In this document: positions 2,846 through 6,974 of the stretch, piece after piece
How the letters are laid out: each line of letters opens with the position of its first letter
Position numbering within the stretch: position 1 is the stretch's first letter
Origin: a virus
Lineage: Duplodnaviria > Heunggongvirae > Uroviricota > Caudoviricetes
DNA: 43,729 nt
Reading direction: 5' to 3' (one strand)
Virus record (IMG/VR): IMGVR_UViG_2711768013_000010
Translations under genes and position numbers: made by a program
The notes under the pieces: model-generated
Told to the model about the DNA's origin: nothing
The model's input: the letters and a program-made list of their open reading frames with translations, nothing else
Database searches by the model: none

Positions 2846-4018
2846 TCACGATGTGCGAATAAAAAGCCCGGGCATTGCGCCAGAGACATGAGCATCCGGC
2901 ACCCCGGACAGGGCGCTATATGACCCCGGTAATGAATGCTCTGAACATCCCGTAATGAAAAATTGTGGGGATGCTATATACGTTCCGGTGGGAGTACTGG
3001 GCACTGAAATCCCCACCGGTCCCAGTCGTGAGCCTCTGTATGACTGCCCCCTGACAAGTCTGATGACTTTATCACCGTCAGCTTCTCCCTGGTACGCAGC
3101 AATAATCAGCCCGCCAATGTCAGGGTCTCCCCATCTGTTGCAGACAGAGCTCGCCACGATTCTGTAAATAATATCTTCTGTGGTTATATTTATTTTCACC
3201 CAGCCAGTCAGTCTGGATATGGGCCAGTAGCAGTAGCGGGTGTGATAAATGGGGCCGTTAATGCCGTAAAAAGTAAGGGATTTGGCTCTGTACCTCGGTT
3301 CTGTTGTCTCAGGGCGTGCATCAGTCCACCGGATGCTGAGCACCCCTTCAAACCGTGTGTCGGGTATGATGATGTCGTAGGGGCCAGCAACGGAATATTC
3401 ACCTGGCAGCGCATTCCTTACCCAGGCCAGGAAATCACTCTTAGTGTCAAAACGGATAACATCTTCAGGCAGAAAAGCACACCCAAAGCCGAATGCGCCG
3501 GGTATCGCCAGACGGCCTTTTGTCCGGTCGTAAATGTCGCTCTGTGCTTCCATCGTGGCCGCACTTTTCAGCCCCAGATTATCCCGGGACTTCTGTTGTG
3601 CCTTTTCGCCTGCTGCTGCGATTTCAGACAGATGGTTAGCCGTTTTCAGAGTGCCGGTCAGCGCAGCATCAATGTCATTTTTGGCCTGCTCTGCTGCGCG
3701 GGCATAACCTGCGGCTGCCGCCACATCCTGCGCCGTCTGCTGTGCGTTTCCGGCTGCGGCCCCGGCGCTCTGCTGCGCCTGCGCCACCATTTCCTCAAAG
3801 CGTTTGACGACATCCGGTTTCAGGTCGCCCTCATCAGGAGCAATCAGAAAGTCATTCAGCGTGCCGGGCTTTGAGTCGTCGTATACAGCAATGTCGCCAA
3901 CGTTGTACTCGTTGTGCCAGCCCGGTTTCAGATACACACCATATTTTCCAGTCCGCGCATGGAAACAGTATTCACCATCGTTTCCTGTCATCACATCAGC
4001 AACAGTGTGCATCACCAC
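2846..4018 (-). CDS. side tail fibre protein, C-terminal portion (N-terminus apparently removed by IS66 insertion)
   Basis: 390-aa ORF with Ala/Gln-rich coiled region and C-terminal receptor-binding-like part; reading frame stays open upstream through 4019..4075 into the putative IS terminal repeat, i.e. no native start. Confidence 0.6.
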   Translation of the reverse strand: MVMHTVADVMTGNDGEYCFHARTGKYGVYLKPGWHNEYNVGDIAVYDDSKPGTLNDFLIAPDEGDLKPDVVKRFEEMVAQAQQSAGAAAGNAQQTAQDVAAAAGYARAAEQAKNDIDAALTGTLKTANHLSEIAAAGEKAQQKSRDNLGLKSAATMEAQSDIYDRTKGRLAIPGAFGFGCAFLPEDVIRFDTKSDFLAWVRNALPGEYSVAGPYDIIIPDTRFEGVLSIRWTDARPETTEPRYRAKSLTFYGINGPIYHTRYCYWPISRLTGWVKINITTEDIIYRIVASSVCNRWGDPDIGGLIIAAYQGEADGDKVIRLVRGQSYRGSRLGPVGISVPSTPTGTYIASPQFFITGCSEHSLPGSYSALSGVPDAHVSGAMPGLFIRTS

Positions 4019-4035: not shown

Positions 4036-4616
4036 TAAGCGTGCAGCAAGAACCGTATTGACGGGAATGTGTTATTCAGTCGGCAGTGCTACGCGCCAGG
4101 GGAGCAGTTCGCCGACCCGGTTTATCGGCCAGTCGGCTATGACGTCAAGGACATAGCGGAGGTAGCTTTCTGGCTCCACTCCGTTCAGTTTGCACGTCCC
4201 GATCAGGCTGTACAGCAGCGCTCCCCGCTCTCCTCCATGATCCGAACCGAAGAACAGGTAGTTTTTGCGGCCCAGACTGACCATCCGCAACGCATTTTCA
4301 GCGATGTTATTGTCCGCCTCAGCCCAGCCATCATCTGCATAGTACGTCAGCGCCGGCCACTGGTTCAGGGCATATGCGAACGCTTTCGCCAGTTCTGAGT
4401 GTCGCGACAGGGTTTTCATCTTTTCACGCAGCCAGCTTTCCAGGGATTTCAGCAGCGGTTTCGTTTTCAACTGACGTTCGGCAAGGCGCTGTTTCAGCAG
4501 GAAGATGTCGTCAGAAGAGATGTCGTTCATAAGCCCGTATTTTACCGGGCTTATTCTGTGACAACCAGGATAAAGAGATTTACAGCATGGTCAGGGAGGT
4601 CAGCAGCCGCTTAGGC
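4036..4616. mobile_element. IS66-family insertion sequence, right-end fragment (putative terminal inverted repeat + transposase 3' part)
   Basis: GTAAGCGTGCAGC.. at ~4036, the typical start of IS66-family terminal repeats; contains the TnpC C-terminal fragment; joined at ~4617 to the Mu-like prophage right end. Confidence 0.6.
4072..4530 (-). pseudogene. IS66-family transposase (TnpC/orf3), C-terminal fragment
   Basis: 152-aa ORF recognised as the C-terminal region of IS66 transposases; an in-frame stop at ~4582 upstream and no N-terminal ~330 aa anywhere in the window. Confidence 0.7.
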
Positions 4617-4748: not shown

Positions 4749-5486
4749 TCATTCACTCTCTTTCAAACCAGTTTTAACTGTTTGTGGTTTTGGGTAAGGC
4801 TGGACTTTGAATAGCTTTGTGTTAAGGCGTTTTCTGGCTCTCTTGTCCAGAAACCGGATGTAACGAAACTGACGGAATTTATGAACACTGGCTCTGTCGA
4901 TATTAGCCCGCAGATGTTCACCTCGCTGTCCTCCTCGTTTGATTGCATTCTTGCAAATCTCGTGATACCACTCGCCATCAAGTTCATAGAATGTTGTTTC
5001 ATGACTGCCTACATAATCAAAATTGCTTGCCTGGTACACGACACCAAGACAGCCACAACGCTCATCTGCAAACGACTGAACCCACTGCACCTGCGGATAA
5101 AGTTGTCTGATTAGTTTGAGCGCGTAACTGATTGCCCTTGATTCGGAGTTTCTCGGCATACAGTCATGCAGCCATAACCGGTTAAGCTCCATATATTCGC
5201 GGTTCTGCGTGCCAGTTACGACGCGTGCACCATTGTTTGGATTAAGGGCATAACCCCATTGCATTACGCCAACCAGCTCCCGTTCTGAAAATATGCCCAG
5301 ATGAAGGTAGGAATTATTTACGAAACGATGGCTGTAATGTTTATTGACGACGACCAGCCGGGCCAGCCAGCAACTTATTGTCTCAACCCGTAACTCACGG
5401 GAGCCATAACCGACGATATTGTCGTTATAGTGAATAAGTTCAGGCGTGCTGATGATACGGGATGTAACTTGCTTTCTGTTCCCCAC
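4749..5486 (-). CDS. mom: Mom-like DNA modification protein (anti-restriction adenine modification), start uncertain
   Basis: Large ORF 4749..5681 immediately downstream of and overlapping a Com-like zinc-finger gene, at the right end of a Mu-like prophage exactly where mom sits in Mu; start placed at an in-frame GTG (~5486). Call rests on position and the com partner. Confidence 0.6.
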
Positions 5487-5640
5487 GACAGGATTTCCTT
5501 GTGTATGTGGGGTGCTCTGTGGCGCTCTGAGATGTGATTTGATTGAGGGTTTTACAGCGCGGACATTTAACTTCCAGATAACTGAAGCTGGCTCGTGCCA
5601 GTAGCTTGTTACAATGTCGGCACCGTATGTTTCGATACAT
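5440..5640 (-). CDS. com: Com-like zinc-finger translational activator of mom
   Basis: ..[26 protein letters not shown].. matches the C-x2-C..C-x2-C zinc-finger pattern and flanking residues I recall for Mu Com; ORF 5440..5685, start probably the internal Met (MYRNIRC). Confidence 0.7.
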
Positions 5641-5685
5641 GGCCGCATAACCTCCTGCTTTGTTGTTGATATCTTTATCACTCAA

Positions 5686-5775
5686 TCGATCGACAAAAAC
5701 GATCGATTTGATTTATTTAATTGATACAACAAATAACACGAAATGTCATTAGCGAAAATTTATGAGTTTGATCAC
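5686..5775. promoter_or_regulatory. GATC (Dam-site) cluster upstream of com-mom: candidate methylation-sensitive operator/promoter region
   Basis: Two CGATCG motifs 13 bp apart (~5688, ~5701) and a third GATC (~5770) in an AT-rich region just upstream of com; in Mu the mom promoter is controlled by three upstream GATC sites and OxyR. Confidence 0.4.
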
Positions 5776-5896
5776 TAATTTTAAACGGTGCTGTAACGCA
5801 TAAGTGCTGAATGATTGTACATTTGAATACCGCAAAGCAAACAAATCAACTAATTTATAGAAGTCAATTGGTTAATTGCCAGCGTAAGAGGCTGCT

Positions 5897-6190
5897 ATGG
5901 ACAATCATGTAACGACGAGAAATCGAAAAATGATTGAAAATGCGGAAATCTATAATGATTATTTTTCCGATTATTCAGATGCCTGCAAATACAGTTCGAG
6001 TGCGGGAGAGTTCATATGCTTCAACTTTTTTATTAAATCTTATGTTTTTCCTCCACAGCAAGAAGATGGAGGTGTGCCACCTCCTGAAATCACTTTGCAC
6101 CGTATAGCCTCCGTCTCAATGATGGAGCAACAGGCTAATGAGCTGTATAGCATTCTGGGAACGATTCTACAAAAGCGTGAATCGGACTAA
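5897..6190 (+). CDS. hypothetical protein (opposite-strand, AT-rich; candidate moron)
   Basis: 97-aa ORF preceded by a good Shine-Dalgarno (AAGAGG, ~7 nt upstream) and -10-like TATAGA; low GC relative to the phage backbone; no recognisable domain. Confidence 0.45.
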   Translation: MDNHVTTRNRKMIENAEIYNDYFSDYSDACKYSSSAGEFICFNFFIKSYVFPPQQEDGGVPPPEITLHRIASVSMMEQQANELYSILGTILQKRESD

Positions 6191-6357
6191 TGATACCGGT
6201 TCATTTGCCTGCCCGGATGGGGAAGCAGGATTGACTGCTCCATAAGCAGCTATATTTCTGAATACGAAATACTATCCAGCGATTACATATGGCTGGATAG
6301 CGGCAAAGATGTTTTCATTAGTGTCAAACCGGCAGAGGACACCACCGGTTTGTATTG

Positions 6358-6612
6358 TTACATCATGGTACTGTCAGTTCCGGGCTGAGCCGGGTCTGGT
6401 TGCTCTGGCTGCGCGTCGGTTTTCGGCTCATTATCAGCATCACTGGCCGCAACTGCTGGCCCAATAAGTTTTGCCAGCACTTCATCAACGTAAGTGTCGA
6501 TTTGTGCCTCAAAATCCTTGCGGACCTGCGCTTTCAGCAACTTATTTACTTCACCGGAATACAGTGCCTGTTTTACCAGGTCTTCAGTGACGGTGCCTTT
6601 AATTTCTGGCAT
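6358..6612 (-). CDS. hypothetical protein with acidic Pro-rich C-terminus
   Basis: 84-aa ORF; followed on the minus strand by a hairpin CAAACCGG..CCGGTTTG (~6321..6348). Confidence 0.4.
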   Translation of the reverse strand: MPEIKGTVTEDLVKQALYSGEVNKLLKAQVRKDFEAQIDTYVDEVLAKLIGPAVAASDADNEPKTDAQPEQPDPAQPGTDSTMM

Positions 6613-6647
6613 GTATATCCTCCTTATGCGGGAATAAAGCCCTGCAA

Positions 6648-6842
6648 TCAGGGCTGGGTCGGGTCTTTTGGGAGCGGAGTTACCTGCGCTGTTTTACTGA
6701 GTTTTTCAGCTGCTGCGTCCTCAATTTTGCGGCGAACATAATTTCTGATGGCCTTATAACCACCACTCACCAGATATAACGCACATACTGCCGTGCAGAA
6801 ATACAATAAAATAAGCTGTAAAAATGTCATTATCCCTCCCAA
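6648..6842 (-). CDS. small putative membrane protein (one predicted TM helix)
   Basis: 64-aa ORF with hydrophobic N-terminal stretch FLQLILLYFCTAVCALYLV followed by a basic region. Confidence 0.4.
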   Translation of the reverse strand: MGGIMTFLQLILLYFCTAVCALYLVSGGYKAIRNYVRRKIEDAAAEKLSKTAQVTPLPKDPTQP

Positions 6843-6974
6843 TTATTGACATGGTGTTGACACCGGTAATATCTGTTAGGTAAAAAGGTGCACTGCATTT
6901 TTTGCTTTGGATATAACGATCTTTTTGCCGCCGGTTTCTTGTTTTCCCTTACCGGCGGCATTTTTTTATCCTGC

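Follow-up and report, generated by a model that had tools for sequence, protein, structure and literature searches.

What the three small genes between an esterase gene and the com-mom pair of a Mu-like prophage are, and whether they belong together, is the question raised by positions 5897-6842 of IMG/VR record IMGVR_UViG_2711768013_000010, a 43,729-nucleotide (nt) stretch of Caudoviricetes DNA that we refer to as the window. The original prediction, made from the sequence alone, had taken this interval for an AT-rich island of three morons, expressed from the prophage in the lysogen. The three open reading frames (ORFs) are real genes, yet they do not make up a single three-moron island. The interval is instead probably a junction of two unrelated pieces: an esterase module on the minus strand (6326-9029), to which two of the small genes belong, and a cassette (5750-6325) that carries the third, ORF97. 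The overall picture is one of ordinary phage mosaicism, and current understanding is not overturned.

The right end of a Mu-like prophage

The interval is the right end of a Mu-like Escherichia coli prophage. Region 5600-7000 finds a match over at least 80% in 18 complete E. coli genomes, and the annotated gene order of one copy, JE86-ST05, runs from Mu-like head and tail genes through an invertible tail-fibre segment, a gin-like recombinase, a 'DUF6645' protein, DUF1378, DUF826, an opposite-strand hypothetical gene, com and mom into host DNA. In phage Mu itself, the gap between gin and com is 95 base pairs (bp). Because the Mu gap is only this long, the roughly 3.4 kilobases (kb) between the two genes here are extra relative to Mu, and in the window it is the esterase module and a cargo slot that separate gin from com.

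The guanine-plus-cytosine (GC) content of the interval is uneven, being 0.344 in the com-ORF97 spacer, 0.398 in ORF97, 0.448 in DUF1378 and 0.502 in DUF826, compared with 0.534 for the whole window. Positions 5641-6140 fall within the lowest 0.3% of the window's 500-nt windows by GC, and the interval 5897-6842 taken together has a GC of 0.45 (7th percentile). The truly AT-rich patch is 5641-6190 only, and part of it is the mom control region; the AT-rich island originally described is thereby reduced to the spacer and ORF97, with DUF826 and DUF1378 falling outside it.

DUF1378, DUF826 and the esterase they accompany

The esterase gene (6975-9029, minus strand) encodes a NanS-p-type sialate O-acetylesterase of 684 amino acids, with a Pfam SASA domain and a C-terminal DUF6645 domain (phrog_143, E 1.7e-296). 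On the same strand lie the genes for a DUF1378 protein (6648-6830; 60 amino acids, isoelectric point (pI) 9.3), which has an N-terminal transmembrane (TM) helix and a basic C-terminal part, and for a DUF826 protein (6358-6612; 84 amino acids, pI 4.24), in which a helical N-terminal half is joined to an acidic, proline-rich tail ending in -TMM. The start of DUF1378 is ATG 6830, the one chosen by the Prokaryotic Genome Annotation Pipeline (PGAP), with GGGAGG five bases upstream; DUF826 has GGAGG seven bases 5' of its ATG. The original prediction listed, after ORF97, a 64-amino acid single-TM protein and then an acidic protein of 84 amino acids. The single TM helix and the acidic 84-residue product are borne out, but the 64-residue form results from starting at the first TTG, 6842, and it is DUF826 that comes first after ORF97, then DUF1378. 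No domain had been recognised in any of the three proteins, which holds for ORF97 but not for its neighbours: DUF1378 scores 109.1 bits against Pfam PF07125 (cut-off 25; model positions 1-58 of 59) and matches phrog_494 at E 1.6e-32, and DUF826 scores 58.7 bits against PF05696 (cut-off 25; model positions 1-58 of 75) and matches phrog_311 over its full length at E 4.9e-28.

We searched IMG/VR with the DUF1378 protein of the window and re-annotated the 33 loci found. The order esterase, DUF1378, DUF826 is kept in every one of these loci with enough sequence, 27 of them Mu-like, flanked by gin on the upstream side and by com-mom on the downstream side, and 5 lambdoid, followed by holin and lysozyme. 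With respect to the separability by which morons are recognised, DUF1378 and DUF826 were always found together with the esterase, in Mu-like and lambdoid contexts alike. The ratio of non-synonymous to synonymous substitution (dN/dS) relative to the CI5 copy is 0.08 for DUF826 and 0.14 for DUF1378, values that point to strong purifying selection on both genes. As judged from these sequence comparisons, DUF1378 and DUF826 make up a fixed tail to the esterase module and are not separate AT-rich morons.

The nanS-p region of Shiga toxin (Stx) and other lambdoid phages holds these three genes with order and strand unchanged and with a homologous esterase-DUF1378 spacer. The trio of one O157:H7 lambdoid prophage directly precedes a class II holin and lysozyme, and homology to the window spans the spacer and ends a few bases past the DUF826 stop. 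DUF826 and DUF1378 ORFs likewise lie between nanS-p and the holin gene S in Stx2a phages, where nanS-p is induced together with the phage (PMC10462455). One lambdoid IMG/VR locus (L054) combines an esterase 98% identical to window 6975-9029 with a DUF1378 at 57% identity and a lambdoid-type DUF826, a mosaic that provides evidence of recent recombination inside the module between Mu-like and lambdoid phages. Where the window departs from this pattern is in its setting, in which gin and com-mom of a Mu-like transposable prophage flank the module; given that no Q, pR', stx or holin lies nearby, its transcriptional control must differ from that of the lambdoid module. A search of the stretch from the gin stop to the esterase start revealed no terminator, which makes read-through from gin possible. 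The module (esterase, antisense small RNA, DUF1378 and DUF826) is probably a single import that follows gin in this terminator-free arrangement; in lambdoid and Stx-type prophages the same-order module belongs to the Q-dependent late operon and directly precedes the holin.

The position of DUF1378 and DUF826 directly 5' of a class II holin in lambdoid prophages raises the possibility that the two are lysis-timing accessories, a pinholin partner or an antiholin-like pair, carried along in the Mu-like phage as passengers of the esterase. DUF1378 is also a very small single-TM protein, like many holin-associated proteins. We consider such a role unlikely, because the pair is intact in the 27 Mu-like loci, under strong purifying selection and with no adjacent holin, and because some esterase-holin junctions, for example that of E2348/69 PP2, do without it. 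Moreover, DUF1378 is preceded by the esterase wherever a locus has enough sequence, whereas a holin follows in five loci only. Since the pair is kept in Mu-like phages that have no adjacent holin, we infer that its function belongs with the esterase and not with lysis. It is a reasonable guess that the basic, membrane-inserted DUF1378 and the acidic DUF826 form a charge-complementary pair, and they could serve the esterase module as, for example, a membrane anchor and its oppositely charged soluble partner.

A small RNA appears to complete the module. The predicted gene occupies 6857-6967 on the plus strand, with a -35 element TTGACA (6857-6862) and a -10 element TAAAAA (6881-6886) separated by an 18-nt spacer, a GC hairpin (6927-6959) and a run of seven T residues (6961-6967). 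The transcript has a predicted length of about 75-80 nt and a fold z-score of -3.5; its terminator ends 8 nt from the esterase stop, and it is antisense to the esterase-DUF1378 spacer. This arrangement recalls PasA and PasC of enteropathogenic E. coli (EPEC), the validated Hfq-dependent RNAs known as EcOnc51/52 in enterohaemorrhagic E. coli, whose coordinates and orientation in strain E2348/69 are given in Table S6 of PMC8550237. As in PasA and PasC, the element follows the esterase gene in antisense orientation, ends in an intrinsic terminator whose GC hairpin and U-run abut the esterase stop codon, is of similar predicted length and carries the block TnTTGAC...CTGT..G..A.AAA. Its layout agrees with that of PasC and, for the distal terminator, with that of PasA. 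When the window element, PasA, PasC and three further variants are aligned, the promoter block, terminator and U-run are invariant and the RNA bodies differ; in comparison with PasA and PasC themselves, the alignable sequence comprises the promoter block and the stretch past the terminator but not the body. Four sequence types occur across the 33 loci, and the changes in the terminator stem are compensatory. The window RNA thus differs from PasA and PasC in its body, one of at least four types, and in being followed by DUF1378-DUF826 instead of a holin or an insertion sequence (IS). We conclude that 6857-6967 is likely a PasA/PasC-type small RNA and part of the esterase module. The Rfam family Esr41 (RF02676) was rejected as an identification, as the score of 22.2 bits (E 0.23) is far below the gathering threshold of 102 and the related loci gave no match; Esr41 proper is located in OI-43 (PMC8565820).

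ORF97 and the slot beside com-mom

The second piece is defined by its borders. In sister Mu-like prophages that do not carry ORF97 (L004, in an Stx2c phage, and L006, FORC_069), homology to the window stops at about 5735-5750 and resumes at 6326-6329. Because homology breaks at these points, the cassette can be set at about 576 bp (5750-6325), consisting of some 147 nt upstream of ORF97, the gene itself and some 135 nt downstream. Among the IMG/VR loci the slot from DUF826 to com exists in at least four versions, namely the 717-nt ORF97 type and types of 851/930, 616 and 460 nt, and the ORF97 type and the two larger alternatives each hold an ORF that points away from com. The cargoes of the alternative slots (L025, L035, L041-L049, L004 and L006) comprise an ORF of 99-137 amino acids (MIQGGDYLLKENE...), a zinc-ribbon-like ORF of 64 amino acids with a CxxC...CxxC pattern and an opposite-strand ORF of 78 amino acids, none of which belongs to a known family.

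The convergent spacer between ORF97 and DUF826 (6191-6357) is strongly structured on either strand (fold z-scores of -3.3 for plus and -5.1 for minus) and contains hairpins at 6235-6249, 6272-6300 and 6326-6352, and a terminator-like site was found 3' of ORF97. The hairpin nearest DUF826 (6326-6352) is the sole one in shared DNA, outside the cassette. Like a moron, ORF97 thus occurs in only part of the sister prophages, its place being taken by other cargo in the rest, and its cassette has sharp borders and a deviant composition. It is a cargo gene in a phage hotspot; its expression in the lysogen is hypothetical.

ORF97 itself (5897-6190, plus strand) encodes a soluble, acidic protein of 97 amino acids (pI 4.74). 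As originally noted, it runs against its neighbours: com and mom, DUF826, DUF1378 and the esterase are all on the minus strand. The strong ribosome-binding site claimed for it is also confirmed, as a Shine-Dalgarno (SD) sequence, AAGAGG, stands at 5886-5891, five bases 5' of the ATG. Both SD and ATG are retained in the diverged CI5 and M3 copies, whereas CI5 lacks the internal ATG 5930, from which PGAP derives an 86-amino acid product in most copies; the CI5 gene is annotated with 100 amino acids. On these grounds ATG 5897 is the better start. The frame remains open in a variant of 78% amino-acid identity, and against CI5, at 84.5% DNA identity, it is open with an in-frame indel. Against CI5 we counted 14.8 synonymous and 22.2 non-synonymous differences, which gives a dN/dS of 0.33, the lowest among the six frames, and the central 40 codons are nearly invariant. 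ORF97 is thus a real gene, with the look of a translated one, for a small acidic cytoplasmic protein. An unusual constraint on the spacer upstream of ORF97 was considered and rejected, the 86-87% identity between the window and CI5 being like that of the flanking genes.

Several truncated or disrupted alleles (P0011-P0014) exist, and taken together with the moderate dN/dS they lead us to conclude that ORF97 is dispensable for the phage. In two of them, P0011 and P0014, the protein breaks at different residues and then continues into an identical foreign peptide (NDSNLLIVFYVQIMPDD...), which suggests that one mobile element inserted at two sites in ORF97. The same alleles and the same dN/dS would also suit a decaying, functionless remnant, the first gene of a three-gene A-B-C operon whose partners have been lost: the distant relatives examined all stand in such A-B-C trios and ORF97 stands alone, and the gene is rare, being present in 18 of 5,426 complete E. 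coli genomes. We regard decay as improbable, because frame, SD and start codon have survived the divergence from CI5 with only an in-frame indel, because the central codons have scarcely changed and because the solo layout recurs in all copies seen, with clean borders and no fragments of B or C.

The original prediction also gave ORF97 promoter-like elements of its own, which our scan does not support. A scan for sigma-70 promoters upstream of the gene returned sites no more frequent than in shuffled sequence, and inspection by eye likewise identified none; the sole plus-strand sigma-70-like sites overlap the start codon or lie past it, and none could serve 5897. The com gene (5440-5640, minus strand, ATG at 5640; Pfam Zn_ribbon_Com) is intact and encodes 66 amino acids identical to those of CI5 Com; mom (about 5483-4749, minus strand; Pfam Mom) has its start overlapped by com. 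One JE86-ST05 copy (com at L001 19842-20041) matches the window exactly across 5600-7000 but carries a 1-nt deletion deeper in com, which PGAP flags as a frameshift. DLI.5a is likewise identical to the window across 5600-7000.

Upstream of com lies the com-mom control region (5641-5749, minus strand). A perfect 9-bp inverted repeat in this region, AATCGATCG-N7-CGATCGATT (5684-5708), stands about 35-70 nt 5' of com, encloses two GATC (Dam) sites, at 5688 and 5701, and is conserved in five of the five prophage variants aligned. The com-mom genes are homologous to those of Mu, with about 72% DNA identity over mom, and Mu too has a GATC cluster upstream of com, to which the likeness of the repeat is merely local. 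Unlike Mu, the window has just two GATC sites there, both inside the inverted repeat, and the Mu C-site and T6-spacer sequence are absent. The repeat could be a putative activator site or a Dam/OxyR site, and it probably replaces the C-site/OxyR arrangement of Mu in the control of mom.

The mom region of Mu has divergent promoters, momP1 and momP2, and RNA polymerase occupies the outward-facing momP2 without the late activator C (PMC4287176). By analogy, an outward momP2-like promoter within the conserved stretch 5686-5749 may drive ORF97. Such a promoter would explain both why the cargoes of the slot mostly point away from com and why no promoter of its own is visible for ORF97, which would then be transcribed independently of the late genes.

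A reading of all three small genes as independent AT-rich morons, lysogenic-conversion genes expressed from the repressed prophage, is very unlikely: ORF97 does fit most of what defines a moron, and low lysogen expression of the esterase module could come from gin read-through, but DUF826 is of average GC, DUF1378 and DUF826 were always seen with the esterase and occupy a late-operon position in lambdoid phages (PMC10462455), and neither has a promoter or terminator of its own, the only nearby promoter-like block facing the opposite way. Activity of gin in the lysogen is known for phage Mu. The moron interpretation of the original prediction is therefore largely upheld for ORF97, in view of its cassette, composition, hairpins and relatives in accessory slots, and falls for DUF1378 and DUF826, a conserved part of the esterase module.

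Several points weigh against our own preferred reading of an esterase module joined to an independently expressed cargo cassette. No sigma-70 promoter stands out 5' of ORF97, and the gene has disrupted alleles and a dN/dS that is merely moderate. The momP2-like route is drawn by analogy from Mu, which the window resembles in sequence just around the GATC cluster. On the side of the module, the tie of DUF1378 and DUF826 to the esterase is one of synteny, and the loci that display it were gathered by similarity to the window DUF1378, so that close relatives were favoured.

Beyond mom, the window and JE86-ST05 part company: in JE86-ST05 the adjoining DNA is rhsC/ybfB, unlike the window copy. In the window, a full transfer-messenger RNA (tmRNA) gene lies at 1711-2073 on the plus strand (Rfam, 295.8 bits), about 2.7 kb beyond mom, and between the two are a tail-fibre-like ORF (2846-4018, minus) and an apparent C-terminal fragment of an IS66-family transposase (4072-4530, minus). 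From these features the window prophage copy seems to abut the remnants of another element near ssrA.

Relatives of ORF97 and a proposed mechanism

We were interested in how far the ORF97 family extends. Its close relatives make up 14 protein clusters in a set of 5.8 billion; every one comes from E. coli or Shigella, and some are truncated. A plasmid search placed ORF97 on none, and a tblastn search of phages returned a distant homologue only, in E. coli phage vB_EcoS-733R5 and a sister phage. An exhaustive HMMER search starting from ORF97 identified one distant relative, in Yersinia enterocolitica (E 1.4e-4), and a profile built from the relatives reaches Klebsiella, Raoultella, Lelliottia, Enterobacter, Citrobacter and E. 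coli at 22-31% identity (E 1e-21 to 1e-37). In these searches the family is confined to Enterobacterales and mostly to prophage regions. Comparisons of ORF97 and its family with Pfam, PHROG, NCBIfam, PADLOC and the sequences of the PDB, made with the single sequence, member by member and with the profile, gave no match, and the family is without a name in any library searched. An AlphaFold (AF2) model computed from the family alignment, with a mean predicted local distance difference test (pLDDT) score of 76, has a disordered N-terminus, long strands at residues 19-34, 37-51 and 64-76 and a C-terminal helix at 77-96, a predicted shape typical of small oligomer-forming modules.

In each distant relative examined, the ORF97 homologue, A (97-107 amino acids), heads a tight same-strand trio and is followed by B (81-95 amino acids) and C (123-128 amino acids). 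The C protein, 42% identical between Yersinia and Klebsiella, carries a conserved HCLWHYH motif and is assigned to phrog_5954, whose function is not known; similarity between the B proteins of these two genera is confined to the C-terminus. B and C are without a known family, and C matched nothing in the PDB or Pfam. A tblastn search with the B and C proteins over the whole window found no match and no fragments. By these sequence criteria ORF97 is the solo A member of an A-B-C family.

The trios occupy accessory positions. In Yersinia lambdoid prophages (L009-L012) the trio shares the strand of the cI repressor gene and separates it from the N region. This cI-N slot is filled by rexAB in lambda. 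In Klebsiella (L013-L017), as in phage vB_EcoS-733R5 (L008), it lies at the prophage end adjoining yfdC, beside a retron-type reverse transcriptase, and in Enterobacter (L018-L021) at the prophage end after tail fibres, invertase and umuDC-like genes. The A-B-C cluster is a candidate toxin-antitoxin (TA) or defence system, with no match in Pfam, PADLOC or the PDB; against the defence models of PADLOC-DB 2.0, ORF97, A, B and C hit no family at E values up to 1.

ORF97 thus resembles Hendrix-type morons and the contents of the lambda rexAB slot in being an extra gene that is variably present, deviant in GC, oppositely oriented and followed by 3' hairpins, and in having relatives between cI and N in Yersinia lambdoid prophages; it differs from Hendrix-type morons in that the scan yields no promoter of its own and that its family matches nothing in the defence libraries. 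We propose that ORF97 would bind a partner, either a protein or a single-stranded nucleic acid, in phage-phage or phage-host conflict. It is a long shot that A-B-C is an undescribed TA-like or abortive-infection system of Yersinia, Klebsiella, Enterobacter and E. coli and that the solo A of the Mu-like phage is its decoy or neutraliser, in which case ORF97 would allow growth of the phage in hosts with the full system, or coexistence with them. The full trio is present in 11 of the 5,426 E. coli genomes, with zero overlap with the 18 that carry ORF97, numbers too small to interpret.

For annotation, two genes labelled 'hypothetical' can be assigned to the NanS-p esterase module, the length of the membrane protein is 60 amino acids and not 64, and ORF97 has 97 and not the 86 of PGAP in most copies. 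In Stx phages the NanS-p esterase module is discussed as an accessory for growth and virulence. As we read the locus, the module and its small RNA are also carried by Mu-like transposable prophages, which exchange it with lambdoid phages, as the one esterase with 98% identity illustrates. The cargo hotspot beside the mom control region and the un-named A-B-C trio in rex-like slots would make cheap candidates for screens of phage defence and counter-defence.

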